Positions 2,896-49,748 of a DNA stretch of 64,000 bases are shown here, piece after piece. Within the stretch, counting starts at the first letter, position 1. Each line of letters starts with the position of its first letter. The notes below the pieces were generated by a model. It was given only the letters and a program-made list of their open reading frames with translations, had not been told where the DNA came from and ran no database searches. The translations under genes were made by a program, and so were the position numbers. The stretch is from Candidatus Alloenteromonas pullicola (GTDB lineage: Bacteria; Bacillota_I; Bacilli_A; RFN20; CAG-826): positions 6,648-70,647 of the forward strand of contig DVMV01000010.1 of NCBI GenBank assembly GCA_018714785.1, in the 5' to 3' direction.

Positions 2896-4509
<1,614 letters not shown>

Positions 4510-4593
4510 TGGATTGCTCCGCTTAAACTAGAAAATTGTATTACCAACGAAAGGCTTAAAGAAGAATGAATCGGACGATATTTGGACTATGTC

Positions 4594-6828: not shown

Positions 6829-6829
6829 G

Positions 6830-6853
6830 AAAAAAGCCCAGGTTGCCCTGGGC
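6830..6853 (-). terminator. Rho-independent terminator downstream of tRNA-Glu
   Basis: On the minus strand: GCCCAGGGCAACCTGGGC hairpin followed by TTTTTT. Confidence 0.5.
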
Positions 6854-6864
6854 TAATTTCCTTT

Positions 6865-6939
6865 TGGTGACCCCAGCTGGAGTCGAACCAGCCATTGAAC
6901 CTTGAGAGGGTTCCGTCTTAACCGATTGACCATGGGGCC
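6865..6939 (-). tRNA. tRNA-Glu (anticodon CUC)
   Basis: The reverse complement GGCCCCATGGTCAATCGGTTAAGACGGAACCCTCTCAAGGTTC...GGTTCGACTCCAGCTGGGGTCACCA folds as a cloverleaf. Acceptor GGCCCCA/TGGGGTC, anticodon loop CTCTCAA, encoded CCA end. Confidence 0.85.
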
Positions 6940-7002
6940 GACGGGGTCAAGGCATATTTAACTACGTTGCCCGCCCCATATCAAGAAAAATCTAAGCGAG
7001 GT

Positions 7003-8772: not shown

Positions 8773-8846
8773 GCAGGCGTAGTTCAATGGTAGAACATTA
8801 CCTTGCCAAGGTAAATACACGGGTTCGATTCCCGCCGCTTGCTCCA
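8773..8846 (+). tRNA. tRNA-Gly (anticodon GCC)
   Basis: GCAGGCGTAGTTCAATGGTAGAACATTACCTTGCCAAGGTAA...GGGTTCGATTCCCGCCGCTTGCTCCA. Acceptor GCAGGCG/CGCTTGC, anticodon loop TTGCCAA, encoded CCA end. Confidence 0.85.
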
Positions 8847-9915: not shown

Positions 9916-11314
9916 GCCGATATCGCGTTTTGAGAAGGTCTTCGGCGCCTACCGCGGCAAAGGGAACAAGAAGCTTGACCTTCTCGGCGGGCTCGTCACC
10001 TTCCTGGCGATGTGCTACATACTGCCGGTCAACGCCTCGATACTCTCGCAGTCCGGCATGGATCCGCTCGGGGTGTTCGCCTCGACCGCCTTGGTCTCTG
10101 GCATCGCCACGCTGTTGATGTCGATGCTTGGCAAGGCGCCGATCGCCTTGAGCGCCGGGATGGGGCTAAACGCCTTCTTCACCTACACCGTCTGCGGGAT
10201 GCTTGGCTTCTCCTGGCAGGAAGGCATGATCCTGCTCACCGTCTCCGGGGTGCTATTCCTAATCATGTCGATTACCAAGGTGAGGCTTTTCATAGTCAAT
10301 TCCTTCCCTAAGGACGTCAAGCACGCCATCTCGGCCGGACTGGGCGCTTTCCTGGCCTTCATCGGGCTGAAAGGCGCGGGTATAGTCGCCGACAGCGAAT
10401 CGACATTGGTCACCCTCGGCGACCTGTCGCAGCCTAGCGTCATCCTCTCGGTGGCGGGCATCTTCTTCGTCTTCTTCCTCTCCAACCTCAAGACGAAGTC
10501 CAAGCTCTTCTCCTACCTCTCGCTCCCCATATCCATGCTCCTATTGGCCTTGGTCGGCTATTTCATGACCCTAGGCGGGGTCAACGACCCGATGCTCCCC
10601 AACGTCGATTGGGGCGCCAACTGGGGGATCGTCAATTACGAGAAGGTCTTCATGTACGGGGTGTTCGATCCCGCCAATTCCGGCATGGATTTCCCCGCAA
10701 TGCTCGCGGATGTATTCTCAAATCCGCTCTCCTACGCCGCTTTGATATCGCTTCTGCTGGTAAATCTATTCGACACCACCGCCACCTTGCTCGCCTGCGG
10801 GGCCGAGGCGGAGATACTCGACGAGAAGGGGAACCTGCAGTCGAACGGTCCGGTGCTCGCCGACGCAATCGGATCGGCCATCTGCGCCCCGCTTGGGACC
10901 TCGACCGTCACGAGCTTCGCCGAATCCTCGGTCGGAATAAAGACCGGGGCCAGGACCGGTTTCGCCTCCTTGCTGACCGGAACCCTGTTCATCCTCTCGG
11001 CTTTCCTCTACCCGGTGTTCGAGCTCTTCTCCTCATCCTGCGTCTCCTCCGCCGCGTTGGTCAGCGTCGGCGGACTCATATTCTCCTCGAACATGAGGAA
11101 AATAGACTTCTCGGAGGCCGAGAACGGCTTCTGCGCCTTCCTATCGGTCTTGATGATAGTGCTGACCTACTCGCTGACAACCGGCATCGCCTTCGGCTTG
11201 CTCTCCTACGTGGTGATAGCCGTGGCCCGTGGCAAAGCCAAAAAGCTCGGCTGGATGGTGTATCTGGTCGCCTTCCTTCTGTTGGCGTCTTTGGTGATAA
11301 CCGCGATAGTCTAG
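9899..11314 (+). CDS. NCS2/AzgA-type purine (adenine/guanine/hypoxanthine) permease
   Basis: 471 aa polytopic membrane protein whose N-terminus (FEKVFGAYRGKGNKKLDLLGGLVTFLAMCYILPVN) is typical of the family. It overlaps add by 17 nt and sits in a purine-salvage context. Confidence 0.8.
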   Translation: MSASAEPISRFEKVFGAYRGKGNKKLDLLGGLVTFLAMCYILPVNASILSQSGMDPLGVFASTALVSGIATLLMSMLGKAPIALSAGMGLNAFFTYTVCGMLGFSWQEGMILLTVSGVLFLIMSITKVRLFIVNSFPKDVKHAISAGLGAFLAFIGLKGAGIVADSESTLVTLGDLSQPSVILSVAGIFFVFFLSNLKTKSKLFSYLSLPISMLLLALVGYFMTLGGVNDPMLPNVDWGANWGIVNYEKVFMYGVFDPANSGMDFPAMLADVFSNPLSYAALISLLLVNLFDTTATLLACGAEAEILDEKGNLQSNGPVLADAIGSAICAPLGTSTVTSFAESSVGIKTGARTGFASLLTGTLFILSAFLYPVFELFSSSCVSSAALVSVGGLIFSSNMRKIDFSEAENGFCAFLSVLMIVLTYSLTTGIAFGLLSYVVIAVARGKAKKLGWMVYLVAFLLLASLVITAIV

Positions 11315-11973
11315 CTCTTGCCGAGCTTCCCCCGGAGGTTGAGCTCGCTTAGGTCATGGACGGCGATCGCCATCGCCTGGGGGTCGAGGGGATCGATGTC
11401 CTGCGATTCGAGGTAATCGATGAGCTTCGGCAGCATCGATAGCGACGTGACGAAGTTGTCGGAATAACTGTTGTCCAGCGGCGTCATCAGGCAATCGTCG
11501 TTGATAAGCACGATCGAGATGAAGAAATGGGTGTCGAACCCGGTCATCATGGCCATCCATTCGACCCGGGTTTTGTTGCGCATCATCGGGTTGGCGATGT
11601 ATTTCGCCTCCTTGCCGCGGTAGAAGATCCAATTGGGGTCGGTCTCCTTGGCGGCGATCGCCCCGTCGTAATATCGGTCGCGGATGCAGTAGATGAACTT
11701 GTTGCCGATCATCACGTGGTCGATGTGGAAGGTCTCCGAGTCGCCGATCCGGTTGACGAAGTCGTTGATCAGGTAGAAATCGTTGTAAAGCACCACTTTC
11801 TTGATCGTGGAGTAGTACATGCGCATGGTGAAGCGACGGTATAGGAAGTGCTTCACTGGCTCATAGAGGAAAAGGAACGCGAAGATGAGGCCGACCAATA
11901 TGCAGAGCACGCAGAAAATCGACAGCCTCACCGAATAAGGCAATCCGAAGGTTATAGCCGCGAAGGCCCTCAC
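11311..11973 (-). CDS. NERD-domain-like membrane protein
   Basis: One N-terminal TM helix (LSIFCVLCILVGLIFAFLFLY), then a NERD-like core (FHIDHVMIGNKFIYCIRDRYYDG). I chose the GTG start at 11973, which forms a GTGA overlap with the deoD stop. The tracked start at 12090 would lie inside deoD. Confidence 0.55.
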   Translation of the reverse strand: MRAFAAITFGLPYSVRLSIFCVLCILVGLIFAFLFLYEPVKHFLYRRFTMRMYYSTIKKVVLYNDFYLINDFVNRIGDSETFHIDHVMIGNKFIYCIRDRYYDGAIAAKETDPNWIFYRGKEAKYIANPMMRNKTRVEWMAMMTGFDTHFFISIVLINDDCLMTPLDNSYSDNFVTSLSMLPKLIDYLESQDIDPLDPQAMAIAVHDLSELNLRGKLGKS

Positions 11974-12689
11974 GCGAAGTCCTCCGCGGTCTTGATGGCC
12001 ACCTCGACCATGTCGACGAGCCCGCTCTGGCGCTGCTCGGCGCTCATCTCCTCGCCCCCTAGGAACGAATTGGAGACGGTCAGTATGCAAAGGGCGTTCT
12101 TGCCCATCCTCGCGGCGTTGGCGTATAGGGCGTAGGATTCCATCTCGACCCCGAGCACGCCGAGCTTAGCCCACCTCTTCCAGGTATCGGGATCCTCGTC
12201 GTAATAGATGTCGGCCGAAAGCACGTTGCCGACGTGGACGGCCTTCCCCATCTTCTTGCCATATAGGTAGGCGCTTAAAAGCACCGGGAAGCTCGAGACG
12301 GCCGAGAAGGTCCCGCCGCGGAGGTCGAACCCGCCCATCCAGTTGGAGTCGGTGCAGGCGCCTTGCGCCAGTATCAGGTCGCCTTGCTTGATCTCGGGCT
12401 GATAGGCCCCGGCGGTCCCAATCCTGATAATTGTCTCCACGCCGTAGAAGGCGAAAAGCTCATGGGAATAGATGCCGATGGAGGGCATGCCCATGCCGGA
12501 AGCCATGACCGAAATCAGCTTGCCGGACTTGGTGTGGCCAGTGTAGCCGAATACGTTCCGGGTCGAGGTGACCAGCTTGGCATCGGTTAGGAAGGTCTCG
12601 GCGATCCATTTGGCGCGCAGGGGGTCGCCTGGCATCAATACTACTTTGGCGAAATCGCCTTTCTCGGCGGCAATGTGCGGTGTCGGCAT
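11970..12689 (-). CDS. deoD: Purine nucleoside phosphorylase, DeoD type
   Basis: 239 aa. MPTPHIAAEKGDFAKVVLMPGDPLRAKWIAETFL and GVLGVEMESYALY are hallmark DeoD sequences. Confidence 0.9.
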   Translation of the reverse strand: MPTPHIAAEKGDFAKVVLMPGDPLRAKWIAETFLTDAKLVTSTRNVFGYTGHTKSGKLISVMASGMGMPSIGIYSHELFAFYGVETIIRIGTAGAYQPEIKQGDLILAQGACTDSNWMGGFDLRGGTFSAVSSFPVLLSAYLYGKKMGKAVHVGNVLSADIYYDEDPDTWKRWAKLGVLGVEMESYALYANAARMGKNALCILTVSNSFLGGEEMSAEQRQSGLVDMVEVAIKTAEDFA

Positions 12690-12704
12690 GTTATATCTCC
12701 TTTG

Positions 12705-12736
12705 GGCAAATAAAACCCCTTATCGCTAAGGGGTTG
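12705..12736 (-). terminator. Rho-independent terminator after glmS
   Basis: On the minus strand: AACCCCTTA-gcga-TAAGGGGTT followed by TTATTTG. Confidence 0.55.
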
Positions 12737-12797
12737 TTGTCTCATAAGGTGCCCATGGCGATATTTTAACGCCTAAAGGGCATAAGGGAATAGTCGG

Positions 12798-14570
12798 CTA
12801 TTCGACCGTGACCGACTTGGCTAGGTTCCGCGGTTTGTCGATCGGCAGCCCCTTGGCCTCGGCCAGGTAATAGCTGAGCAGCTGGGCGACCACCACGCTC
12901 GGGCAGACCCTGAGGTATCCCGGCACGGTCTTGAAGCTGATGGAATCCCCTTGCCGGAAGAGCGATTCGTCCGAGATGATGAGCAAGTCGGCCCCGCGGG
13001 ATGACAGCTCAACGAAATTGTTGCGGGTGCTGGCCTCCTTTGATGGGTCGGTCACGAAGCCGACCACCAAGGTCCCCTTCTCTATGAGGGCGATTGGCCC
13101 GTGCTTTAGCTCCCCGCCGGGATAGGATTCGGCGTGGACATAGGCCACCTCCTTCATCTTCAGCGCACCCTCCAGGGAGGATAGGTAATCGTACCCACGG
13201 CCGATGTAGAAGGCGTCGCGGGCGTCTTTGCGCTTGCTGGCCTCCTCCTTTACCTTGTCCGAGTGCTTTAGGATGTCGGATATCGAGTCGCACATTGAAA
13301 GCAGGTCCTTCTCGATTCCCGAATAGCCCCGCAAAGCCGCCACCAGAAGCGCCAAAAACGAAATCTGGGCGATATAGGACTTCGTTGAGGCGACCGCCAC
13401 TTCAACCCCGGCATAAAGCAGGCAGGAGAATGTGGCTTTCCTTTCGAGGGTCGACCCTTTGCTGTTGGTGACGACGAGGTTGGGCAAGCCGTGTTCGTTT
13501 ATGACCTTCTGGCATTTGATCAGGTCGGCCGTCTCCCCCGATTGGGAGAGGATTATGAAGAACGGGTTGCCACCGATGTCATAGGGGTCGTAGGCCCATT
13601 CCGAGCCGATGGAGGCGCTGCTTGGCTTGCCTAAGGCGCGGAAATACTTCACCCCGACCTTCGAGGCATAGAAGCTGGTGCCGCAGGCGAGGAAATGGAT
13701 GGAACTGGCCCGCGAAATGGCATCGAGGACCTTGGGATCGAAGCGGATCCCGCAATCCAGATAATTGTCCAGCAGCCTATGGATGACCGACGGGATCTCG
13801 TGAATCTCCTTCAGCATGTAATGCGGGAACCCGTGCAGATCGTCGTCGTAGAAATCTGGCGAGCGGCTAGACTCGGGGCGATCCACTTCCTTCCCTTCGG
13901 AGAAAATATGCACGGAATCAGCATCGAGATACCCATAATCCCCATCCTCAAGCTCGACGAAGCGCGAGGTGAGGTCAATCATCGCCCCCGCATCGGAAGC
14001 GAGGTAATTGGCTTGGTTTCCCAACCCCAAAAGCAGCGGCGAGGCGCCCTTCATGAAATATAGGCGCCCGGGCTCATCGACCTTGATTATGGCCGCCGCA
14101 TAGCTTCCCTCGACCCGCCTTTTCGCGGACTCGATGGCCAAAAGGACGTCCTTGAGGTGTAGGTATTCCTCCTCAACCAAATCGATTAGGATCTCCGAAT
14201 CGGTGTCGGAGGCGAATTTGTACCCCTTCTGCTTCAGCTCGTCGCGGAGCGGGCGGAAGTTCTCAATCACGCCGTTGTGGACTATGGCGAATTTGCCGGA
14301 GTAGCTTAGGTGGGGATGGGCGTTGGCCACGCTTGGCTGCCCATGGGTTGCCCAGCGGGTGTGGGCTATGCCGACGGTCCCCTTGAGCTCATCTCCCAGC
14401 AAGGCGGCAAGCTTATCGACCTTCCCCACTTCCTTGTGGATCTCGAACTTGCCATCGTCATCCACGCAAACCCCGGCTGAGTCATAGCCGCGGTATTCAA
14501 GCTTCTTGAGCCCCTTTATCAGGTATGAGCGGAAATCGATCTTTCCGACTCCTCCGACTATTCCGCACAT
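12798..14570 (-). CDS. glmS: Glutamine--fructose-6-phosphate aminotransferase
   Basis: 590 aa. Starts MCGIVG (Ntn catalytic Cys), has two SIS domains, and ends KSVTVE. Confidence 0.95.
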   Translation of the reverse strand: MCGIVGGVGKIDFRSYLIKGLKKLEYRGYDSAGVCVDDDGKFEIHKEVGKVDKLAALLGDELKGTVGIAHTRWATHGQPSVANAHPHLSYSGKFAIVHNGVIENFRPLRDELKQKGYKFASDTDSEILIDLVEEEYLHLKDVLLAIESAKRRVEGSYAAAIIKVDEPGRLYFMKGASPLLLGLGNQANYLASDAGAMIDLTSRFVELEDGDYGYLDADSVHIFSEGKEVDRPESSRSPDFYDDDLHGFPHYMLKEIHEIPSVIHRLLDNYLDCGIRFDPKVLDAISRASSIHFLACGTSFYASKVGVKYFRALGKPSSASIGSEWAYDPYDIGGNPFFIILSQSGETADLIKCQKVINEHGLPNLVVTNSKGSTLERKATFSCLLYAGVEVAVASTKSYIAQISFLALLVAALRGYSGIEKDLLSMCDSISDILKHSDKVKEEASKRKDARDAFYIGRGYDYLSSLEGALKMKEVAYVHAESYPGGELKHGPIALIEKGTLVVGFVTDPSKEASTRNNFVELSSRGADLLIISDESLFRQGDSISFKTVPGYLRVCPSVVVAQLLSYYLAEAKGLPIDKPRNLAKSVTVE

Positions 14571-15892
14571 TCGTTTCCCTCCTTGATGGCCTTGGCGACC
14601 ATTTCGACGGCCTTATGGCATCTATCCTCGTCTAGGCATTCGCCCATCACCCGGACCAGCGGTTCGGTGCCCGACCCGCGAAGCAGCATCCTGCCGTCGT
14701 CGCCCAGCATCTCCTCGGCCCGCTTCAGCGCGGCCTTTACCGAATCCGATTCCAGGGCTTTGGTGGCGCCGCTTCTGTCCTTGAACCGGATGTTTATCAA
14801 GGACTGCGGGTAAACCTTAAGCTCCTGGAGTTTGGCGAAGACCTCGGGCTGATTCAGGTATATCCCGATGATCTTGATCGCGGTCAATAGGCCATCCCCG
14901 GTGTTGAGGTCGGAGTGGAATATAACGTGGCCGGATTGCTCCCCGCCGATCGAAAGACCCTTCTCTTTCAGACGCACCTGGACGTATTTGTCGCCCACGG
15001 AGACGGTATCGTACCCGATCCCCTCTTCCTCCAGCGCTTTGCGCAGGCCGAAGTTGCTCATGACGGTTATCACGACCTCGTTGCCATTTAGCAGCCCCTT
15101 CTCCCTAAGCGATAGCGCACCGAGGAATATCTCGGCATCCCCGTCGATGACCCGGCCGGTGCTATCCAAGCCGAGGCAGCGGTCGGCGTCGCCGTCGAAG
15201 GCGAAGGCCAGGTCGTAGCCGTCTTTGGCGAACTCCCGCTGCAGATTCTCGAGGTGGGTCGAACCGCAGCCGGCGTTGATGTTCTTCCCATCCGGCTCGG
15301 AGCAGATGAAGGTGGCGTCAATCCCCAGCAAAGGGAACAGCTTCGGGGCCAAGGCCGAGGCCGAGCCGTTGGCGCAGTCGAAAAGCACCCTAACCTTCCC
15401 TTGGCCCTCGTGCTTTCCCATCAGGAAGCGAAGGTATTTATCCTTGAGTTCCGGCGCTTCCTGATAATGGCCGGGGCGGGTTGGCAAATAATCCTCAGCC
15501 GAATCGATGTAATCCTCGATCTTCGCCTCGATCTCCTCGCTTAGTTTCTCGCCGGAATGGGAGAACAGCTTGATTCCGTTGTCGGAATAGGGGTTGTGGG
15601 AGGCCGAGATCATGATCCCGTAGTCGAATTCGCCGTTCTCGACCAAATACGATACCGATGGCGTGGTCGAGACGCCTTCGTCGAAAAGGAAGCCGCCGCT
15701 TCTCACGATTCCTTCCTTTAGCCCTTCCAGCAAGGCAGGGCCCGATTCGCGGGTGTCCCGGGCGATTAGGATCCGGTTGGCTTTGCCATTCGGGTATTGC
15801 CCTATGTAGCGCCCGATGCGGTAGGCGATCTCCTGCGTAAGAACGCTCAAAGCCGCGCCGCGGATTCCGTCGGTTCCAAAATAACGTCCCAT
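14558..15892 (-). CDS. glmM: Phosphoglucosamine mutase
   Basis: 444 aa. MGRYFGTDGIRG N-terminus and active-site ISASHNP. Its 3' end overlaps glmS by 13 nt. Confidence 0.95.
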   Translation of the reverse strand: MGRYFGTDGIRGAALSVLTQEIAYRIGRYIGQYPNGKANRILIARDTRESGPALLEGLKEGIVRSGGFLFDEGVSTTPSVSYLVENGEFDYGIMISASHNPYSDNGIKLFSHSGEKLSEEIEAKIEDYIDSAEDYLPTRPGHYQEAPELKDKYLRFLMGKHEGQGKVRVLFDCANGSASALAPKLFPLLGIDATFICSEPDGKNINAGCGSTHLENLQREFAKDGYDLAFAFDGDADRCLGLDSTGRVIDGDAEIFLGALSLREKGLLNGNEVVITVMSNFGLRKALEEEGIGYDTVSVGDKYVQVRLKEKGLSIGGEQSGHVIFHSDLNTGDGLLTAIKIIGIYLNQPEVFAKLQELKVYPQSLINIRFKDRSGATKALESDSVKAALKRAEEMLGDDGRMLLRGSGTEPLVRVMGECLDEDRCHKAVEMVAKAIKEGNECAE

Positions 15893-15914
15893 CTCTTCTC
15901 CTCAAATCTCCAAA

Positions 15915-16745
15915 TTATTTGCCTGATTGCGAAATCTTCTTGCTGCTCTTCAGCGCCATGTAGTCCTCGAAGGTGGTGAGGAATGATTCTGGCTCGATGG
16001 TCTGCAGCTCGCCTTCGTAGGCGATCGAGATGCGGCCGGTCTCCTCGCTGACCACGATGGTCACGGCATCGACTTGGCTCGATATCGAAAGCGCCGCGCG
16101 GTGGCGGGATCCGAACTTGCCCGGCATGGCTATATCGACGGTTTGATAATAAACGGAGGCCGCGGCAATGAGGTCGTTTCTAATGATGACCGCCCCATCG
16201 TGAAGGCGGGTGCCGGGATAGAAGATGGTCTGCAGTATCTCGGAGCTCACCGGGCAATTCAGGGTGACGCCTTTGGCGATGAAGTCCGATAGGTCGTCGT
16301 CCTTCTCGAAAGTGATGAGGGCGCCGATCTTCTTCTTGGACATGATGAGGACCGCGTCGGCGACCTTCCTATAGACGGCGTCGCGGTCGAATATGGCCTC
16401 GGGGATGGCCGAGTTGCGGCCAAATATGCGCTTCGGGCTGACCTTGTTGGCCCGGTTTGAGATGTATTTTCTCCCGTCGGCGGAGTTCTGCAGGAAGAAC
16501 AAGCAGACGGCGATGACGAAGACGGCAAGGCAGATATAGACAAGCAGATCGAAGCCAAAGACGTAGAAAAGCAATATCGCAACCTCGTCTATAAGCAATA
16601 TCGCCCGGGGGACCCATCGCTTGAACCAGTTGTAGAAAACAAAATCGAGCAGGCCGAATATCAATACGGCGAGGATGAAGGGGACATAGTTGGCGTAATT
16701 GCCGAAGTCCTGGTAGGGGGCAAAGCCGGTTAGAAGAAGGTTCAT
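15915..16745 (-). CDS. cdaA: Diadenylate cyclase, membrane-anchored CdaA type
   Basis: 276 aa. Three N-terminal TM helices, then a DAC domain with GALITFEKDD, DGAVII and GSRHRAA motifs. Confidence 0.9.
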   Translation of the reverse strand: MNLLLTGFAPYQDFGNYANYVPFILAVLIFGLLDFVFYNWFKRWVPRAILLIDEVAILLFYVFGFDLLVYICLAVFVIAVCLFFLQNSADGRKYISNRANKVSPKRIFGRNSAIPEAIFDRDAVYRKVADAVLIMSKKKIGALITFEKDDDLSDFIAKGVTLNCPVSSEILQTIFYPGTRLHDGAVIIRNDLIAAASVYYQTVDIAMPGKFGSRHRAALSISSQVDAVTIVVSEETGRISIAYEGELQTIEPESFLTTFEDYMALKSSKKISQSGK

Positions 16746-16754
16746 TTTCTCATC

Positions 16755-17243
16755 TCATTTCTTGGAATGCGCATACCTGGCAGCGGCCGAGGCGGCGATG
16801 GCGCCGGCGATGTCGTCGAGGAAGGTGTTGGAATTGCCGGGATAGGTCCCGTCGTCTTTTTTGGCGTTTAGTTTTCCGACGATACCGTATTTGGTCTTGT
16901 CGATGTAGCCGAAGTTGGTCAAGGCAATCGAGCCATAGACGTTGCAGATGGAATAGGCAAGAACCTCGTCGACCCCATATAGGCCCTCGTCCTCAAGCAG
17001 CATCTTGGAGAGGATATCATCCTTTATCGCCCCGCTGTCGGCGGCCTCGTCGATCGCGATGCCGGTCATTATCGTATATTGGACCTCGCGCTTGCCGAGG
17101 ACGTCCATCACCGACTCGATCATGTCCTGGTGGGTCAATTCGGGAAAATAGGCCTTCTGCAGGAAGACGGCGCAATCGGCCAAGTCGTCAACGGTGACGC
17201 CTCTATCGCTGAGCAAGTCTATGCAATGCTGCCTCAAGTCCAT
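16755..17243 (-). CDS. PgpA/YutG-family phosphatidylglycerophosphatase A-like protein
   Basis: 162 aa, similar throughout to Bacillus YutG-type proteins as I recall them (DEGLYGVDEVLAYSICNVYGSIALTNFGYIDK...TFLDDIAGAIAA). First gene of the cdaA-glmM-glmS operon. Confidence 0.7.
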   Translation of the reverse strand: MDLRQHCIDLLSDRGVTVDDLADCAVFLQKAYFPELTHQDMIESVMDVLGKREVQYTIMTGIAIDEAADSGAIKDDILSKMLLEDEGLYGVDEVLAYSICNVYGSIALTNFGYIDKTKYGIVGKLNAKKDDGTYPGNSNTFLDDIAGAIAASAAARYAHSKK

Positions 17244-17453: not shown

Positions 17454-17527
17454 TGGAGCAGCCTGCGGGAATCGAACCCGTATAACCAGCTTGGGAAGCT
17501 GGTGTTCTACCACTGAACTAAGGCTGC
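17454..17527 (-). tRNA. tRNA-Gly (anticodon CCC)
   Basis: Reverse complement GCAGCCTTAGTTCAGTGGTAGAACACCAGCTTCCCAAGCTGGTTATACGGGTTCGATTCCCGCAGGCTGCTCCA. Acceptor GCAGCCT/AGGCTGC, anticodon loop TTCCCAA. Confidence 0.85.
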
Positions 17528-18397: not shown

Positions 18398-18473
18398 TGG
18401 TGGGTGCTACAGGGATCGAACCTGTGACCTCCTGTACGTCAAACAGGTGCTCTCCCAGCTGAGCTAAACACCC
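18398..18473 (-). tRNA. tRNA-Val (anticodon GAC)
   Basis: Reverse complement GGGTGTTTAGCTCAGCTGGGAGAGCACCTGTTTGACGTACAGGAGGTCACAGGTTCGATCCCTGTAGCACCCACCA. Anticodon loop TTGACGT. Confidence 0.85.
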
Positions 18474-18599: not shown

Positions 18600-18675
18600 T
18601 GGTGCCGACTAGAGGAATCGAACCTCCAACCTACGGTTTACGATACCGTTGCTCTGCCAATTGAGCTAAGTCGGC
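18600..18675 (-). tRNA. tRNA-Thr (anticodon CGU)
   Basis: Reverse complement GCCGACTTAGCTCAATTGGCAGAGCAACGGTATCGTAAACCGTAGGTTGGAGGTTCGATTCCTCTAGTCGGCACCA. Acceptor GCCGACT/AGTCGGC, anticodon loop ATCGTAA. Confidence 0.85.
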
Positions 18676-23307: not shown

Positions 23308-24708
23308 ATGAACATCTTGCCAAGCCTAATCGATTCCAGCCTTACCAACCAGCCATACATGCTGCTGCTGCCGCTGGGACTCATCCTGATCGTAGGAAAG
23401 CTCCTTTCCTTGGTGATGGCCAAGATTAAGGTTCCAGAAGTCGTCGGCTATCTGCTCGGCGGATTGCTGATCGGCCTGTTCTATTTCATACCCAAGGACA
23501 GCCAGTTCATCCTGACCGACTACTCGGTCGAGGGCATCAACGACCTGGCCAAGATCGGCGTCGTGCTTATCCTGTTCGAGGCGGGCATCGAGACCAACCT
23601 CTCCGAGATAAAGAAGCAAGGCAAGGCCGCTATAACCATCACCTGCTTTGGGGTCGTCTTCCCCTTGGCGTTGGGCTTCCTCTCCGCCTTCCTCTTCCGC
23701 ACCGTCGGCCATATGAACCCGGCCTTCTACGACTCGCTTGAGGCAGCCGGAACCTCGCCTTGGTATTCCGATATCTACTATGGCGTCATATTGACCGCCA
23801 CCAGCGTCTCAATCACCGTCGCCACCTTAAAGGAACTTGGCAAGCTCGACGGACCCGCCGGAACCGCCTTGGTGAGCGCCGCCATCATCGACGACGTCAT
23901 CGGCATCGTCCTGCTTTCCATCGTCATCTCGCTTTCCGGCGGCTCCGAGGCCAGCGCCCCCTGGGTCATCCCCACTGGGTCCGGCGCTTGGTCGGTCGTC
24001 TTCCTGATACTCATCATGGCCGCCTTCTTCGCCATCAGCATCGGCATGGGGATCGGCGTCCACAAACTGTTCAACTGGATGGGCAAGAAGTGGCCCCACC
24101 ACCGCCGCATCCCGATGTTCTCCCTCGGGTTCTGCTTCCTGTGGGCTTTCTTGGCTGAGGTGTTCCACATCGCCGACATCACCGGCGCCTACGTGGCTGG
24201 CCTGATCCTGGCCAACACCTCCGCCTCCGGGTACATCGACCACCGCATGGACACCACCGCGAACGTCTTGTTCACCCCGGTGTTCTTCGCCTCGGTCGCG
24301 CTGAAGATGTTCTCCTCGCTGGGGGTCGGCAGCGACACCGGCTCGGTATCCTCGATATCCGGCATGTTCATAGTCTTCGGCATCGTCTGGGTCATCGCCG
24401 GTCTGCTTGGCAAGATACTAGGGGCCGGATCGGGCGCGTTGCTGACCAAGTCCAAGGGCAAGGAAGCCCTCATCATCGGGGTCGGCATGATGGCCCGGGC
24501 CGAGGTGTTGATCGTCACCGCCCAGGAAGGCGTCGATTCCGGCTTGGTCGAGTCGGCCATAATCCCGTTCACCCTGGCCTTGATACTCGTCTCGAGCTTC
24601 CTCACCCCGATCTTGCTCCGCTACCTATACAAAAACGTCGGCAGCAAACTGCCGAAGGTCGAGGGGGCCGGGATCACCAATACCGAAGCTTCGGAATCGG
24701 GAAAGTAA
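23308..24708 (+). CDS. Cation:proton antiporter (CPA2/Kef-NapA-like)
   Basis: 466 aa with ~12 TM segments. The N-terminus LLLPLGLILIVGKLLSLVMAKIKVPEVVGYLLGGLLIG is typical of Na+/H+-exchanger-family proteins. GGGAGG SD lies 6 nt upstream. Confidence 0.85.
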   Translation: MNILPSLIDSSLTNQPYMLLLPLGLILIVGKLLSLVMAKIKVPEVVGYLLGGLLIGLFYFIPKDSQFILTDYSVEGINDLAKIGVVLILFEAGIETNLSEIKKQGKAAITITCFGVVFPLALGFLSAFLFRTVGHMNPAFYDSLEAAGTSPWYSDIYYGVILTATSVSITVATLKELGKLDGPAGTALVSAAIIDDVIGIVLLSIVISLSGGSEASAPWVIPTGSGAWSVVFLILIMAAFFAISIGMGIGVHKLFNWMGKKWPHHRRIPMFSLGFCFLWAFLAEVFHIADITGAYVAGLILANTSASGYIDHRMDTTANVLFTPVFFASVALKMFSSLGVGSDTGSVSSISGMFIVFGIVWVIAGLLGKILGAGSGALLTKSKGKEALIIGVGMMARAEVLIVTAQEGVDSGLVESAIIPFTLALILVSSFLTPILLRYLYKNVGSKLPKVEGAGITNTEASESGK

Positions 24709-25771
24709 GGCAATCTGACACCCCGCCGCTGCAAAGCAGGGTGTCTTTTTTGCTTTCGATGAGCCCATTTATCCCGCCGTATTCCTCGGCTATCCGCCGA
24801 CAGAGGGCATAGGTGAGATAGGCGTCGCCCTTGGCTTGGTGCAGATGCACCTCCATCGGCGAGATCGCGCCCAGCTCGACGCAGGCGTCCTCAAGGGAAA
24901 CCGAGCGGTCGGAGCGGAGCAATTCGTCGGCGATGGGCTGCAGGTCAAGGCAAAGGAACCTCATCTCCTCCAGCCCATAGCGGAGGCACGAGGAACACAG
25001 GAATTTGATGTCGTTGGCGGCGGCGAATCCGACCGGCAAGGTATTTTCGTCCTCAAGCAGGTCCTTGATCTTCTTGTGGAATGCGGGGAATGGCGGGTTG
25101 GAAAAATACGTCTTCTCGGCATAGGCCAGATGGATCCCGCCTAGATGGAACCCATCCTCGGGGTTGATTATCATCTCGCCTTGGTTGGGCAAAGACATAT
25201 CGAGGCCGCAGTCTACGTGGCCGAACTCGCAGATCTTGCAAACCCCGCCGAAGCAATTGGCGCACTCGATGTCGAAGAAAAGCAGTTTACTTATCTTGCG
25301 AGGATCGAACCCGGCGAGGGCCTGTTTCCTCAGGCGGCGATGCCGATCCAAGGCGGCGAAGCCATTGAGCAGCTTCGGGTATTCGAGGTAGCAATCCAGG
25401 TAGGCCTCCCCAAACACATCGTCTGGGGATAGGCCCTCGTAATCGGCCATCCTAGAGAGGAACCCCGCCGGAGTCACCGGCTTCTTCTCGCCGAACTGGG
25501 TGAAGGCCTCCTCGATCGGCAGCTCCTCCTCCACTCCATAGAAGGCGCGGAAAAAGCGGCTGAGGTCGAAGAAGCGCAAGGGCGCGGCGACCCCAGCCTG
25601 CCCAAGCAGCAGGAATATAGGAAGGCAGTCGTAGCCGACGCAAACCCGCCCCGCCGCCAGTTCCGGAAGCTTTTTGGGGTCTATGGCCGAAGCTTTGGAA
25701 TCCCCTTGTGATCCATCATTCAGGCAGAGCAGCTTCCCATCATCGGAAAGCCAGAGGAAGAGCGGGCCCAC
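24674..25771 (-). CDS. DEDDh (DnaQ-like) 3'-5' exonuclease domain protein with a ~190-aa N-terminal region of unknown function (operon gene E)
   Basis: Exo motifs FFDIECAN (DxE), AANDIKFL (D) and HQAKGDAY (H-x4-D). The start is uncertain. I chose GTG 25771 (TAGTG overlap with the upstream stop), because the tracked 441-aa version would overlap gene D by 229 nt. Confidence 0.6.
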   Translation of the reverse strand: MGPLFLWLSDDGKLLCLNDGSQGDSKASAIDPKKLPELAAGRVCVGYDCLPIFLLLGQAGVAAPLRFFDLSRFFRAFYGVEEELPIEEAFTQFGEKKPVTPAGFLSRMADYEGLSPDDVFGEAYLDCYLEYPKLLNGFAALDRHRRLRKQALAGFDPRKISKLLFFDIECANCFGGVCKICEFGHVDCGLDMSLPNQGEMIINPEDGFHLGGIHLAYAEKTYFSNPPFPAFHKKIKDLLEDENTLPVGFAAANDIKFLCSSCLRYGLEEMRFLCLDLQPIADELLRSDRSVSLEDACVELGAISPMEVHLHQAKGDAYLTYALCRRIAEEYGGINGLIESKKDTLLCSGGVSDCLTFPIPKLRYW

Positions 25772-27687
25772 TACCTTACCATCGCCCCGTCCATCATGAC
25801 GTAGACGAGCAAGGCCACGGCGACCGCCAAGCTGAGCACGAAAAGCCCCAGCAGGATGTAGCGCCAGACGCGATTCGATTCCTTGTAGACGGCGACGCTG
25901 CTCAAATAGGCGAAGGCGCCCAGCACAAGCAGCGGCAGCCGGAACAGCTCCGCCAGCGGATAGGTGGCGACGGGCAGCCCAAAGCAGACGCTGCTGCACA
26001 TAAGCATGGCGATGCCGGAGAGCCCCAGCGCCCTCCTAAACCACGCAGAACCCCGCTCATCGCGGCCGAAATACTGCAAACCGATGATCTGCAGCAGGAT
26101 TATCAATATGCCGAGCGGCACGATGTAGATCGCGGTCCCAAGCGACTTCTGCAGGTCATTGAGGTAGAAAAGCGCATAGGCCAAAGCGCAGGCAAAGGCC
26201 GGCAATCCGATTATGAAGAACCAATAGAAGACCGCCTTGAGCAGGTCGAAGCTCTTGGCCGTGGTCCGCTTCAGCTTCTTGCCAAGCGGCTGCTTGAGGG
26301 CGGAGGGGTTCTCCCCGGCGAAAACGCGCAGGTCGGCGACCCGGGTCTTGGTGACGATCTTGTGGGCCCTAGGCGAGCGGAGCAGATCCTCCTTAAGCGA
26401 GTTGAAGTCGGCCTTAAGGCGGGACGAAAGGTGGAAGTCTAGATAGACGAGGTTGGCGGCGGAGGCCTCGAGGTCGATCTTCCGCTGGCCGTCGCGCGTC
26501 TTGAGGATAAGCTGGAAAAGCAAGGCCTGCTTCTCCTCGTCTAGCCCTAGCCCCACCGCTTTGGCGAGGAAGTCGATCTTCTTCTGGAAGCTAAGCGGCT
26601 TGATCGCCTTCAAAGTCAGGTCGAATTTGGTCGAGTCGATCAAAGGGAGCGAGATGAAATGGGCCAGTAGGTCGAGCGCATCCTCATCCCCCTCGTCGGC
26701 CTTGTTGGCCAAGACGATGGCGGTGTCTTTGTAGGAGGAGCTGTCCTTGCGAAGGGCCATCTGGCAGAGGAAGGCGGTGCGGAAGCTCTTCTCGTCCTCG
26801 CATTCCCTATATGCCTCATGGGAGATCTCGTCGATCGAGACCCCGGCGCGGCACGAATACACCGCGACCGCTTTGTCGATGTTCGGCTCCTCGTCGAAAT
26901 ATAGGACCGATAGCTCGTTGAACTCGTTTTGGATGATCTTGGAGAATATCTCGATCTGGTCCTTGGCCTTCCCGTGCATCCCCGGGCAAAGCGAGCAAAG
27001 GTAATCGCGGCGCTCGATGGCCGCCCGGAGGGTGGTCTCATCGTGGATGCGGTTGGTCTCGTCCTCGCAATCGAGGATGGCCGCATTGAGTATCGATTCG
27101 TTGAGCAGGTCCTGCTTGCACGATTCGCTGTGGTCGGCGGTGGTAAGCGAATATACGAGGGAGAGCTGTCGCGCCGATTCCTCCCTGGAAAGAGGCGGCA
27201 GGCCCTCTTGCTTGTTCTTTCGCGCCTTAAGGAGGCAGAGCTTGGCTTTCTGGTAGGCGATATGCTCTATGGCCTCGTGCTTAATGCCGTTGAGCCGCTC
27301 ATCGTCGATGGCCTCGGCCCGATCGTCCATCGCGTTGAGGATGGCGAGGGCCTTGTCGAAATAGCCTTGCTCGGCCAGCCTTGACGCGCCCTGCATCTGC
27401 CGGCGGGTCAAAATGGCGAAATTGGCGATCTGCTTCTGCAGCTCGACGGCCTCGGCGTGGTCTTCCTTGGCTTTGGCTATCTTGGCTTTGCAGCAAAGCA
27501 GCTTCTCCCGGCTAAGGGCCATCTCGACGATGTCGGCGGAGGCTTTTGGGAGGCTTGGCGCATAGGCGCAGGATACCGATTCGATCTCGGTCAGTTCGTT
27601 GGTGAGGCTGACGTAGACGTCGGCCTTGTAGCGGACGCGTTCCTGCGAGCCGGCAAGCTGCTCGGCGATGGTCTTGTTCTCTTCCAT
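25771..27687 (-). CDS. Hypothetical 638-aa protein with a ~440-aa helical (TPR-like, Cys-containing) soluble N-terminal part and a C-terminal block of ~5-6 TM helices (operon gene D)
   Basis: ATG 27687 lies 1 nt after the stop of gene C. The N-terminal part is helix-rich (AEQGYFDKALAILNAMDD). The C-terminal ~170 aa are strongly hydrophobic (FYWFFIIGLPAFACALAYALFY..., LLGLFVLSLAVAVALLVYVMM). Confidence 0.65.
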   Translation of the reverse strand: MEENKTIAEQLAGSQERVRYKADVYVSLTNELTEIESVSCAYAPSLPKASADIVEMALSREKLLCCKAKIAKAKEDHAEAVELQKQIANFAILTRRQMQGASRLAEQGYFDKALAILNAMDDRAEAIDDERLNGIKHEAIEHIAYQKAKLCLLKARKNKQEGLPPLSREESARQLSLVYSLTTADHSESCKQDLLNESILNAAILDCEDETNRIHDETTLRAAIERRDYLCSLCPGMHGKAKDQIEIFSKIIQNEFNELSVLYFDEEPNIDKAVAVYSCRAGVSIDEISHEAYRECEDEKSFRTAFLCQMALRKDSSSYKDTAIVLANKADEGDEDALDLLAHFISLPLIDSTKFDLTLKAIKPLSFQKKIDFLAKAVGLGLDEEKQALLFQLILKTRDGQRKIDLEASAANLVYLDFHLSSRLKADFNSLKEDLLRSPRAHKIVTKTRVADLRVFAGENPSALKQPLGKKLKRTTAKSFDLLKAVFYWFFIIGLPAFACALAYALFYLNDLQKSLGTAIYIVPLGILIILLQIIGLQYFGRDERGSAWFRRALGLSGIAMLMCSSVCFGLPVATYPLAELFRLPLLVLGAFAYLSSVAVYKESNRVWRYILLGLFVLSLAVAVALLVYVMMDGAMVR

Positions 27688-27688
27688 C

Positions 27689-27991
27689 CTACTTGGCCTC
27701 CTTGTTCAGTTCGAAATAGGCCTGCAAATCCGAGACTGAATCGTTCAGCTCCCTGACAAGCGAGGTGAAGTCGGCCATGATGGCCACCTCGCGCTTGGTC
27801 AAGGAGTCGGCGGCCTGGTTGAGGCGCTCGACGTTTTCCTTGGCCTCGGCGTTGAGCCTGTCGAGCATGCTCTCTTTCTTCTTGCTGAGCTCCGCCCCCA
27901 AAGCGGCGTTTTCCTTCTCCAGCTCCGCTTCCTTGGCCAGGGAGGCGTCTAGCTCTTCCTGAAGAGGGTCCTTCTGCATTTCTTCGCTCAT
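27689..27991 (-). CDS. Small coiled-coil protein, 100 aa (operon gene C)
   Basis: ATG 27991 forms an ATGA overlap with the stop of gene B. The sequence is E/K/L-rich with heptad character (LDASLAKEAELEKENAALGAELSKKKESMLDRLNAEAKENVERLNQ). Confidence 0.55.
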   Translation of the reverse strand: MSEEMQKDPLQEELDASLAKEAELEKENAALGAELSKKKESMLDRLNAEAKENVERLNQAADSLTKREVAIMADFTSLVRELNDSVSDLQAYFELNKEAK

Positions 27992-28248
27992 AGCTTTATC
28001 CCCTCCTCGTCGAAGCATTTCTTTATGGCATCGGAGCAGCTCTGGATCGATTTGCCAAGCCGCTGCTTGGCGTCAGCCTCCAAATCGGAGATGGTCTTCT
28101 CGACGACCTCCTCCGCGGAGGCTATGGTCGCCTTCTGCGAATCGATGTACGACTTAAACCCCTCGTGCAGGGCGGAATCGGCAGAGGCATTTAGGAATTC
28201 CGCTTTCTTCCTCATCTTCTCGGCCAAGGCCTTGTAGTCTTCTTTCAT
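27988..28248 (-). CDS. Small helical protein, 86 aa (operon gene B)
   Basis: ATG 28248 is preceded by an AGGAGG SD within the 15-nt gap after gene A. Predicted all-helical (MKEDYKALAEKMRKKAEFLNASADSALHEGFKSYIDSQK...). Confidence 0.55.
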   Translation of the reverse strand: MKEDYKALAEKMRKKAEFLNASADSALHEGFKSYIDSQKATIASAEEVVEKTISDLEADAKQRLGKSIQSCSDAIKKCFDEEGIKL

Positions 28249-28263
28249 CCTCTTTCCTCCTGC

Positions 28264-28641
28264 TTAGGCGCTCGGCAAGCTGCCGCTTCCCCCGGGCATA
28301 AGCGAAGCGCTCATCTGCTTCATATAATCCTCGTTTACAACCCCCACCAAGAACAGCAGCGAGAAAAGGCTGGAAAGCGAAGCCAAGGATATCAAAGATT
28401 GGGCGGGCGCCGGGTAATGGAGTATCGAGCGGAAGGTGGCGAGGTTGGCGTTCACCGCCTTCAGGCACTCCTCGTAGTCGAGGTCCGCCGTCTTGTTGGC
28501 GCGGACGAACCCATCGACGAGGCCGGCCAAGCCCGAAATGTACTCCGCTGAGGGGGCTTCCGAAGGCCGTCCAAGCTGATTCTTCACGATCTCCGCTTGG
28601 GCGTCGGATAGATATTTTCCGGTCATGAATTGGTCTTCCAT
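28264..28641 (-). CDS. Small protein, 125 aa, with one hydrophobic segment (operon gene A)
   Basis: The ORF has ATG at 28641, with an alternative ATG at 28626. It contains LISLASLSSLFSLLFLVGVV and a Gly/Ser tail. A -10-like hexamer lies 8 nt upstream. Confidence 0.5.
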   Translation of the reverse strand: MEDQFMTGKYLSDAQAEIVKNQLGRPSEAPSAEYISGLAGLVDGFVRANKTADLDYEECLKAVNANLATFRSILHYPAPAQSLISLASLSSLFSLLFLVGVVNEDYMKQMSASLMPGGSGSLPSA

Positions 28642-28649
28642 ATCTCAAT

Positions 28650-28677
28650 ATTTTATAGCACGCGGCGCTTATGGCAA
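28650..28677 (-). promoter_or_regulatory. Candidate promoter of the five-gene operon, possibly giving a leaderless transcript
   Basis: On the minus strand: TTGCCA (28677-28672), 16-nt spacer, TAAAAT (28655-28650), then only 8 nt to the ATG at 28641 with no SD. Confidence 0.3.
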
Positions 28678-28681
28678 GCGG

Positions 28682-29326
28682 TCAAGGAAGCCGCAGCCGG
28701 TTAAGGCAGTCGACTATCCCGGGGAAGTCGTTGGCGACATCGTCGGGGGCGACCGCCTTGCCGAATCCGTAGGCGGCGTGGATGAACGGGATCCCGGCCT
28801 TCCGGGCGCTCTCCTCATCCTTATGGGTATCGCCGATGTAGACGGCCTTCTCGATGCCATCCCGGTCCATCAGGGCCCGGATGGTGACGTCCTTGCTCTT
28901 CTTGGTGTCGTCGAAGCACATGTGGTCGAGGAAAGTGTTCGGCCCAACCAAAGGAAGGAAAGTCTCGATATAGCCGAACTGGCAATTGGAGACTATGTAC
29001 AGCCGATACCCGAGGCTTATCAGCTTCTGCAAGGTCGCTTCCTCATCCGGATAAAGCTTCCCCGGGTGTTGGAGGAGGTATTCGTCTTCCGCCTCGAAAA
29101 GCGCCTTCCCCACCGCCGCTTTGCGCTCGGAGCTCTCGCCGGGGAGTATCGAATCGACGATCTCGTCCATCGTCTTCCCCATCTGGGCCCGCGAATCGGC
29201 TTCGGTGAATCGGAACGACGGCGAGATGACCTTCCTTCCCTCAAGTTCCCAGCTCTCGGCGACTTCCTTGGCCGAGTCCCACAGGGTCCCATCGAGGTCG
29301 AATATGATGGCCGTTTGCTTTTCCAT
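28682..29326 (-). CDS. HAD-IA family hydrolase (phosphatase)
   Basis: Motif I AIIFDLDGTLWDS sits near the N-terminus when the ATG at 29326 is used. Motif IV region YIGDTHKDEESARKAGIPFI is present. The tracked TTG 29350 start would lie inside the upstream terminator. Confidence 0.8.
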   Translation of the reverse strand: MEKQTAIIFDLDGTLWDSAKEVAESWELEGRKVISPSFRFTEADSRAQMGKTMDEIVDSILPGESSERKAAVGKALFEAEDEYLLQHPGKLYPDEEATLQKLISLGYRLYIVSNCQFGYIETFLPLVGPNTFLDHMCFDDTKKSKDVTIRALMDRDGIEKAVYIGDTHKDEESARKAGIPFIHAAYGFGKAVAPDDVANDFPGIVDCLNRLRLP

Positions 29327-29354
29327 GGGTTGATTATAGATAAAATCCAAGGCC

Positions 29355-29380
29355 GCCGAAAGAAAAGGCCGCTTTAGCGG
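29355..29380 (-). terminator. Rho-independent terminator after the 29388-30062 membrane-protein gene
   Basis: On the minus strand: GGCCGC-taaa-GCGGCC followed by TTTTCTTTC. Confidence 0.5.
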
Positions 29381-29387
29381 CCAATTC

Positions 29388-30062
29388 TCATATGTCAGCC
29401 TCTAGCTGCGCCCCGGCGGGCTCGTAATCGGACCCGTGGTTGACCCAGGTTATCAATAAGAAGGCGAGCAGGAACGCCCTCGAGGTGGCGTAGCCGCACC
29501 AGAAGACGACGTCCCCCTGGTGGTTGAAGGCATCGAGGAGGTTGTAGTTGGACACCGAGATCGCGTACACGATCAAGGCGGCGAGGATGAAGACGACGAA
29601 GTAGGACAGCTTGCAGTCCCCGTCGAGCGTCTTCTTGAAATAGAGCACGGCGGAGGCGGCGACCAAGGCCGCGGCGACCACGCCGATGATCCCGGTGAGG
29701 ATGTCGTCGTTGACGACGAAGTTGAAGATCCCAAGCGCCAGCACATAACCGAATACCAGCGTCAAGACCAACATGGTCATGAAGACGTGGCTCGACTTCT
29801 TGCGCAACTGCATATCGAGGATCAGCAGGAACATCGCCACCACCAGCAGGGCGGCGAAGGCGATGGTCATGGCCGATTCGCCGGTGTGGAGATAGCCGTC
29901 GACCGGCTCACCCGGCTCCAGGTAATCGATTTGGTAGTTGTGGGCCGCCGGGTCCATGTAGGCCTGCGGCATGACGATCCAGACCGGCAAGGTCACGAGC
30001 ATCAGCACGAAGGCGCAGACGGACCGGAGGTCAATCCCCATTTTTTTGAAGAAACTGATCAT
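29388..30062 (-). CDS. Hypothetical polytopic membrane protein
   Basis: 224 aa with ~6 TM helices. It lies 2 nt downstream of the oppF-like gene and is probably the last gene of the opp operon. Confidence 0.6.
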   Translation of the reverse strand: MISFFKKMGIDLRSVCAFVLMLVTLPVWIVMPQAYMDPAAHNYQIDYLEPGEPVDGYLHTGESAMTIAFAALLVVAMFLLILDMQLRKKSSHVFMTMLVLTLVFGYVLALGIFNFVVNDDILTGIIGVVAAALVAASAVLYFKKTLDGDCKLSYFVVFILAALIVYAISVSNYNLLDAFNHQGDVVFWCGYATSRAFLLAFLLITWVNHGSDYEPAGAQLEADI

Positions 30063-44429: not shown

Positions 44430-44444
44430 TAGCATCGGGAAGAC

Positions 44445-44470
44445 GCCGCTCCGCAAGGGGCGGCTTTTTT
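44445..44470 (+). terminator. Rho-independent terminator (GNRA-loop hairpin) after the Big_2 lipoprotein gene
   Basis: GCCGCTCC-GCAA-GGGGCGGC followed by TTTTTT. Confidence 0.65.
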
Positions 44471-44695
44471 GTTTCTTTATGGCAGCAGGACGAATGTGCC
44501 AAAACCCCGCAAAAGCCCGATATGGGCTTCTTCCCATGCCAAGCGAAAATTATCCAACCGACGAGGAAAAAGCCCGCAGAGGCCCCCGATTCGCCTTGTT
44601 GAGGCCATTAGCCGATTCATTATCCAGGCAACCCGCGATGCGGCGCATGGGCCTCCATGCCATGCGGCCAAGGTTAGGCTAGGGCCACTTCGGCC

Positions 44696-44725
44696 AAAAA
44701 GAAAAGCCGCCCCTTGCGGAGCGGC
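44696..44725 (-). terminator. Rho-independent terminator after the 894-aa lipoprotein gene, with a hairpin identical to 44445-44464
   Basis: The minus strand reads GCCGCTCC-GCAA-GGGGCGGC followed by TTTTCTTTTT. Confidence 0.6.
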
Positions 44726-44740
44726 TTGGGCTAATTGCCT

Positions 44741-47425: not shown

Positions 47426-47457
47426 TGTTTTTTTCCTTTCCATTTTTATTTATTCTT

Positions 47458-48270: not shown

Positions 48271-48286
48271 ATTCACTCCTTGCAAA

Positions 48287-49720: not shown

Positions 49721-49748
49721 ATTCCTCCTGGGATGTGGTTGCGATTGT

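Follow-up and report, generated by a model that had tools for sequence, protein, structure and literature searches.

LapB/YciM and EzrA are scaffolds in which tetratricopeptide (TPR) or helical repeats are anchored to the membrane. The LXG loci of type VIIb secretion systems (T7SSb), with their Lap partners, have small helical genes right upstream of a large protein and tightly coupled to it, a layout that recurs in the operon described here. This operon comprises five genes, A to E, in a 64,000-nucleotide (64-kb) stretch of DNA (the window) from Candidatus Alloenteromonas pullicola (assembly GCA_018714785.1, contig DVMV01000010.1, positions 6,648 to 70,647). Coordinates are positions in this window, and all five genes are on its minus strand. 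Candidatus Enteromonas is GTDB genus UBA733 of order RFN20 and family CAG-826. Its genomes measure ~1.2 Mbp, and their content of guanine plus cytosine (GC) reaches 57%. RFN20 genomes are small and mostly without mraY and murG. The analysis makes it highly probable that B, C and D, usually joined by A and by a HAD-IA phosphatase gene (HAD), form a conserved, vertically inherited module, that D is a membrane protein, and that E is an intact DEDDh exonuclease co-encoded in one clade.

Direct reading of the sequence and calls of open reading frames (ORFs) bore out all five ORFs of an earlier note on this DNA, with their sizes and all four tight junctions. Between A and B the sequence runs TAA, 15 nucleotides (nt) with AGGAGG, and ATG. 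B and C share an ATGA overlap, and the C-D and D-E junctions read TAG-g-ATG and TAGTG, respectively. Orthologues back the ATGA start of gene C, which yields 100 amino acids (aa), and an orthologue alignment backs the GTG start of gene E. Relative to L009, the closest relative (related loci are cited by L numbers), with 83-91% nucleotide identity over these genes, the ratio of nonsynonymous to synonymous substitution rates (dN/dS) was 0.044, 0.095, 0.079, 0.079, and 0.175 for A, B, C, D, and E, respectively, and 0.07-0.11 for neighbouring housekeeping genes. Since dN/dS lies between 0.04 and 0.18 and indicates purifying selection, all five genes, the small ones included, are by this measure genuine coding genes, which answers the earlier caution that the small ORFs might be untranslated.

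Gene neighbourhoods were compared in ~13 lineages covering 30-58% GC and D identities down to ~20%. B and C preceded D in all lineages examined, with spacings of -14 to +3 nt between B and C and -8 to +2 nt between C and D. A preceded B in all lineages but the low-GC Enteromonas-like clade, at a looser spacing of -4 to +135 nt. The HAD gene, previously taken for an unrelated neighbour, was the module's most constant partner: most lineages carry it immediately before A or B, 12-50 nt away. When all loci were mapped with tblastn, a single backbone emerged: MscS(-)/X(-), followed by HAD-(A)-B-C-D, a variable slot, and Na/H antiporter(-)/GNAT(-)/TM212/P-type ATPase/DUF4234. Because this backbone recurs across loci with D identity down to ~20%, the A-D module appears to be vertically inherited at a fixed chromosomal place, neither mobile nor bound to islands. 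A patchy or island-like distribution was not seen in the loci compared: the backbone position was the same, GC was flat over the locus and its flanks, no mobility genes were present, and a scan of viral contigs found no copy of D. The expectation that all five genes co-occur as a block was not upheld, as E was found in one clade only and A was missing from the low-GC clade.

Insertions next to or within the module were also observed. In L028 (7372-8226), an NTP_transferase gene (sugar-nucleotidyltransferase-like) is inserted between A and B, with polysaccharide-synthesis genes farther upstream. In L001 and L016, genes for a NERD protein, an ATPase_2 protein, and a type I restriction-modification (R-M) system form an apparent insertion between HAD and B, where A sits elsewhere. 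Upstream of B in this low-GC clade, a non-coding stretch of ~700 nt (L001, 6701-7413) carries the direct repeats TTTAGACTCCTTTAGACTT... and AAAAACTCCCTAGGAAAAAGTG (twice) and is flanked by the NERD, ATPase_2, and type I R-M genes.

The tight packing of the operon had been read as implying a complex. Overlaps or 2-nt gaps are the rule for same-strand ORFs throughout the window (31789/31792, 33330/33333, 35525/35528, 30062/30065, 55686/55689, and 61616/61619), and in relatives tight junctions also join plainly unrelated genes, such as those for the Opp ATPase, a 224-aa membrane protein (TM224), and HAD in L005. Spacing by itself is therefore weak evidence for a complex, and what fits one is that B, C, and D form one unit in every lineage examined. 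The features of the locus are listed in Table 1.

Table 1. Positions of genes, protein D features, and signals in the window (TM, transmembrane).
Feature	Position	Strand	Description
Gene A	28264-28641	-	125 aa, helical; motifs YLSxSQxEI and LIDGFVRSN, hydrophobic helix, invariant C-terminal P-x-A
Gene B	27988-28248	-	86 aa, all-helical; invariant A-D within ADxAL..G...Y...Q motif
Gene C	27689-27991	-	100 aa, coiled coil; N-terminal half leucine-zipper-like
Gene D	25771-27687	-	638 aa; N-terminal helical hairpin, TPR-like solenoid, basic juxtamembrane segment, five TM helices
Gene E	24674-25771	-	365 aa, GTG start; N-terminal domain 1-160, DEDDh domain 164-332, tail PIPKLRYW
D juxtamembrane motifs (LL)RSPxAHK...K and PxGK	26278-26379	-	residues 437-470; predicted cytoplasmic
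D loop G-R-D-E-R-G-S between TM2 and TM3	26047-26067	-	residues 541-547; most conserved stretch of the family
D five TM helices with very short outer loops	25777-26244	-	residues 482-637; hydropathy and AlphaFold2
HAD-IA phosphatase gene	28682-29326	-	ATG start most likely at 29326; NCBIfam HAD-SF-IA-v1 above cut-off, PGP-like models below cut-off
Promoter-like site TTGCCA-16-TAAAAT (also TGcTATAAA extended -10)	28650-28677	-	8-10 nt before A start codon
Terminator-like hairpin with T-run	24638-24655	-	19 nt past E stop, inside 3' end of convergent Na+/H+ antiporter gene

A word-indexed search of 5.8 billion proteins found seven clusters of D, and a rerun with a broad D alignment gave the same seven. 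Searched exhaustively with a HMMER profile, 1.84 billion representative proteins yielded 42 D clusters, 40 of them with E < 1e-30, and no partial matches to other families. All but three clusters were 590-642 aa long and shared the same architecture. Members carrying names were called 'hypothetical protein [Bacilli bacterium]', and species-level genome matches were to Candidatus Alloenteromonas pullistercoris, Candidatus Enteromonas sp., and metagenome-assembled genomes of uncultured Bacilli/Bacillales. None of 39 family members matched Pfam, and PADLOC gave only sporadic coiled-coil matches in one or two of them. A metagenome scan with the GRDERGS motif yielded two short contigs only. On these searches the module is confined to one narrow set of uncultured gut Bacilli with small genomes, which are of the Enteromonas/Alloenteromonas type and probably belong to order RFN20.

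The AlphaFold2 (AF2) model of D, built from 39 sequences, had a mean predicted local distance difference test score (pLDDT) of 89.8 and a predicted template modelling score (pTM) of 0.69. In this model, a long N-terminal hairpin of two helices (residues 5-36 and 47-106) has lower confidence, and a helical-repeat solenoid extends to about residue 440. The juxtamembrane segment is confidently packed back on the solenoid (pLDDT ~90), where a beta-bridge joins residues 403-405 to 476-478. The five or six TM helices proposed earlier came out as five, placed at 482-509, 518-540, 545-570, 577-600, and 606-637, after ~480 aa of all-helical sequence. Twelve K/R residues between positions 440 and 486, ahead of TM1, predict an N-in topology, by which the positive-inside rule would also place the GRDERGS loop in the cytoplasm. 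When two D models were searched against the PDB and BFVD with Foldseek, all matches were generic proteins of TPR-like build (BamD, LGN, SPY, and SNAPs) at E >= 0.013, with a TM score of ~0.5 over ~220-280 residues for BamD. The earlier description of D as TPR-like thus stands as to general architecture, but neither these Foldseek values nor Pfam, which found no TPR motif in the window D or the 39 family members, take it further. The predicted structure of D is confident and, among PDB and BFVD entries, appears to have no specific structural relative.

Conservation in D rises towards the membrane. Mean identity to the window D was 16% for residues 1-110, 18% for 111-250, 29% for 251-436, 37% for 437-480, and 25% for the TM part. 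Across the 39 sequences, R437 and S438 were 97% conserved, K447 and G469 were invariant, and in the loop between TM2 and TM3 D543 and E544 were invariant, with G541 and S547 conserved at 95 and 90%, respectively. The invariant or near-invariant residues R437, S438, K447, G469, G541, D543, E544, and P572 cluster on the predicted cytoplasmic face beside the membrane.

Homologue alignments showed A, B, and C each to be a recognisable family with conserved motifs, which in C are the coiled coil together with N58, F75, and N83. The single hydrophobic segment noted earlier in A is present (residues 80-104), but its status as a TM helix is doubtful: it carries D, E, N, or Y in several orthologues and may not be one. 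Protein A ends in P-x-A (window 28264-28272), which is invariant in 10 divergent orthologues. The window proteins A, B, and D had no match in Pfam, NCBIfam, PADLOC, PHROGs, or PDB sequences (single-sequence and profile searches). Protein C had only generic coiled-coil matches in the PDB (GCN4-type) and Pfam and a weak PADLOC match to JetC (E 0.006) that is coiled-coil noise. Scans of 10 A, 12 B, and 11 C homologues with Pfam or PADLOC likewise gave only scattered coiled-coil noise, and by hhalign A, B, and C are not paralogues of each other or of parts of D. These results agree with the earlier impression that the operon matches no recognised system, and on this absence of matches, rather than on a demonstrated mechanism, A-D would belong to no catalogued kind.

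Protein E is, from its residues and profiles, an intact DEDDh (DnaQ-like) 3'-5' exonuclease. The catalytic residues D167/E169 (ExoI), D254 (ExoII), and H311/D316 (ExoIII, Hx4D) were invariant in a 10-sequence alignment, and profile matches agree, which confirms the DxE, D, and H-x4-D motifs noticed at the outset. E matched the PADLOC DEDDh model at 4.3e-9 and PHROG 192 at 5.2e-13; of the five proteins, it alone matches this generic accessory model of PADLOC 2.0. The window E fell below Pfam cut-offs, and orthologues passed the RNase_T gathering score (28.3 and 26.7 bits vs 24). Residues 164-332 share 37% identity with stand-alone RNase_T/DEDDh_C 3'-5' exonucleases of Clostridia, and the closest solved relatives by PDB profile were Cas2-DEDDh and the PolC exo domain (both ~1e-6), DnaQ, and RNase T. 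Orthologues end in a conserved C-terminal P(L/I/V)PKLRYW (window 24677-24700).

The first 160 residues of E were found in the window's clade only. A degenerate second exonuclease domain is not claimed for this region, for which hhalign gave a weak result (P 0.005, probability 7%). Just past the ExoI motif, the window E carries a CxxC...CxxC cluster (residues 170-181, 25231-25263). Of its cysteines, relatives invariably keep only C170 and C181, so that a four-Cys zinc site does not characterise the E family.

The slot after D holds different genes in different lineages. In the window's clade it is occupied by E, and D and E overlap by 1-4 nt in every member, even where D identity falls to 47%. 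SbcD-SbcC follows D directly in L022 (+5 nt; 3453-7648) and L028 (+53 nt; 10965-15184) and lies 3 kb downstream of D in L026 (14015-18267), and L029 has JetA-JetB/MksE-JetC without JetD (12013-17213). The low-GC clade, which lacks A and E, carries a multi-TM protein of 242-255 aa without a family match, within 3-4 nt of D (L001 9891-10619, L017 6545-7297, and L019 9808-10575). MarR and an ABC exporter take the slot in L025 and also in L027, where AddB/AddA lie another 4 kb downstream, and RnfC takes it in L024. Because slot content differs by lineage, E is an accessory, clade-specific addition rather than part of the conserved core. The occurrence of three non-homologous DNA-processing modules (DEDDh exonuclease, SbcCD, and JetABC-like) at the same position is suggestive.

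The overall picture proposed for the module, credible but tentative, is a lineage-specific membrane-anchored scaffold that possibly positions DNA-processing enzymes. The proposal is for a structural or organisational role, not an enzymatic one, because A-D encode no NTPase or recognisable catalytic domain. D would act as a membrane-anchored docking platform, its five TM helices rigidly joined to the cytoplasmic TPR-like solenoid and keeping it at the inner face of the membrane, where the motifs RSPxAHK, PxGK, and GRDERGS would form a functional hub. B and C, co-translated with D, would bind its poorly conserved N-terminal hairpin as coiled-coil subunits. A might also bind D, perhaps by its invariant P-x-A tail in the manner of classical TPR-peptide recognition; the tails of both A and E could be docking tails for the TPR-like domain. 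The platform would draw in cytoplasmic clients: here exonuclease E, by way of either its clade-specific N-domain or the conserved tail at its C-terminus, and elsewhere perhaps SbcCD or a condensin-like complex. The membrane would thus become the site of DNA-end processing or nucleoid handling. The recruitment step itself, in which, in wall-less gut Bacilli with small genomes, an A-B-C-D platform tethers machines for DNA-end processing or of the SMC type (SbcCD, an MksBEF/JetABC-like condensin, or the clade's dedicated DEDDh exonuclease with a docking domain) to the membrane, is on its own unlikely.

Several points weigh against this picture. The TPR-like similarity of D is generic, with no significant Foldseek E value and no TPR motif, and the conserved D/E loop and the prolines of the TM helices could equally mean a channel or an enzyme. 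Coupling of D and E may be incidental, given the tight junctions between unrelated genes in compact genomes. The DNA-related slot genes could reflect ancestral sbcDC synteny followed by replacements in a permissive slot, which in several lineages is filled by non-DNA genes (TM242, MarR-ABC, and RnfC).

The last of these points, together with the normality of gene overlaps in these genomes, also favours the possible, though rather unlikely, alternative that (A)BCD is a membrane complex with a role unrelated to DNA, such as an envelope, division, or osmotic-homeostasis scaffold or a gated channel, to which E, SbcCD, and JetABC are mere neighbours. Such a role would suit a lineage that mostly lacks mraY and murG and can therefore be expected to have envelope or division factors of its own. 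The divergent MscS gene is a conserved neighbour, and the best-conserved parts of D are the TM-proximal motifs and the TM prolines. However, it leaves three non-homologous DNA-processing modules at one position in different lineages, D-E coupling and the clade-specific N-domain of E are kept down to 47% D identity, and D has almost no extracellular surface for envelope sensing.

The membrane-anchored protein paired with a nuclease had earlier been thought to act in defence or in DNA processing. The second option survives in a weaker form, as the slot repeatedly holds DNA-processing genes, and defence is disfavoured by strict vertical synteny. An anti-phage or anti-plasmid system, with D as a membrane-disrupting effector or sensor, B and C as regulators, and E as nuclease effector, is decidedly improbable. 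Membrane protein and nuclease pairings are common among defence systems, the low-GC clade locus lies beside NERD, ATPase_2, and type I R-M genes, a Wadjet-like JetABC set adjoins the module in L029, and the best solved relative of E by sequence is Cas2-DEDDh. Yet A-D had no PADLOC match beyond coiled-coil noise, in the window proteins or in the 39 D family members, and the module keeps its chromosomal position down to ~20% D identity, with flat GC, no mobility genes, and no viral copies. The nuclease is absent from most lineages, and the NERD/R-M island of L001 and L016 appears inserted between HAD and B.

That the genes share no function, being unrelated lineage-specific ORFs compacted together without forming a complex, is very unlikely. 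The overlaps and 2-nt gaps between plainly unrelated genes, in L005 and in many pairs in the window, make it conceivable, but B, C, and D are never apart in the ~13 lineages despite the insertions in L028 (A-B) and L001 (HAD-B), and their order and junctions are kept from 30% to 58% GC. A T7SSb/LXG-like polymorphic toxin locus, in which small helical targeting partners precede a membrane-active effector and an immunity or partner gene, was the analogy first drawn and is barely credible, since beyond a superficial layout (two or three small helical genes before a large protein with a hydrophobic C-terminus) it fails in every testable defining feature: no LXG (PF04740), WXG100/Lap, DUF3130, or DUF3958 match was found, either for the window proteins or among the 10-39 homologues scanned for each family, no EssC-type (FtsK/SpoIIIE) ATPase occurs among the large ORFs of the window (the ten largest others encode surface proteins, a GH31 enzyme, a substrate-binding protein, and ABC transporters), the N-terminus of D is its most variable part and the C-terminal part its most conserved, the reverse of polymorphic toxins, D is an integral membrane protein with a predicted N-in topology, the gene after D is a nuclease or housekeeping gene rather than an immunity gene, and the locus appears vertically inherited.

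Transcription signals around the module were also inspected. The promoter-like site upstream of A, earlier taken as the operon's own promoter, is present with a 10/12 match inside the 40-nt HAD-A gap and is conserved in L009, but such matches are no commoner in the region than in shuffles (3 found vs 3.1 expected), so that the site is only suggestive. In more distant relatives, HAD and A are likely co-transcribed, because the gap between them is just 12-16 nt there. A perfect TATAAT lies 6 nt before the HAD ATG (window 29326-29345); together with TGcTATAAA 8-10 nt before the A ATG (28641-28657), it suggests that this organism makes leaderless or near-leaderless transcripts. A strong terminator-like hairpin, GGCCGC-taaa-GCGGCC with a T-run (29367-29382), separates the TM224 gene from HAD and indicates that the transcription unit may begin at HAD rather than inside the upstream Opp operon. 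At the other end, E and the convergent Na+/H+ antiporter gene share 35 nt where their 3' ends meet (24674-24708).

The TM224 gene itself (29388-30062) lies between the Opp ATPase gene and HAD, and its product weakly matches, below threshold (E 0.001), the Mycoplasma MSC_0624 family, whose members are membrane proteins associated with F1-like ATPases. Farther away, at 42312-53753, very large predicted surface proteins of 1334 aa (LRR_5, Flg_new), 900 aa (Flg_new_2), and 705 aa (Big_2) are encoded. An Rfam scan of the whole window found five tRNA genes (6868-6939, 8773-8843, 17457-17527, 18401-18473, and 18603-18675) and nothing in the operon.

Uncultured Bacilli of the RFN20 type abound in the gut and rumen; their genomes measure 1.2-1.9 Mb, and most are without peptidoglycan synthesis. 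A module of ~3 kb that is kept at one chromosomal position lineage-wide under strong purifying selection likely serves a basic cell-biological function outside known families, and D, with its confident predicted structure and no detectable relative, offers a tractable entry point to it. The significance of unmatched A-D is tempered by how commonly orphan operons occur at the level of an order. Should its link to SbcCD, to condensin-like genes, or to the exonuclease prove real, the module would represent a new membrane-DNA interface that couples chromosome repair or organisation to the membrane.

Compared with known systems, E is, on sequence grounds, a new member of the DnaQ-like DEDDh family, in which residues 164-332 hold all five catalytic residues and match the profiles of the PolC exo domain, DnaQ, RNase T, and Cas2-DEDDh. 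It differs in its unusual, clade-specific N-terminal domain of 160 aa, where relatives have a C-terminal (sometimes BRCT) extension, and in the translational coupling of its gene to a membrane protein gene. SbcCD and Wadjet/MksBEF (JetABC) gene sets take the slot downstream of D in sister lineages, whereas A-D have no homology to them, the JetC match of C (E 0.006) being noise, and L029 is without JetD; a functional link of A-D to SbcCD or JetABC is conjectural. The nearest likeness of A-D is to membrane-tethered TPR or helical scaffolds, as a functional analogy rather than a membership. Both would use an all-helical repeat domain at the membrane as a docking platform, and BamD is the best structural match of D. 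In contrast to a single N-terminal helix or lipid anchor, the anchor of D consists of five predicted C-terminal TM helices with invariant, putatively cytoplasmic motifs, and D further stands apart through its dedicated small coiled-coil partner genes and a family confined to one uncultured lineage.

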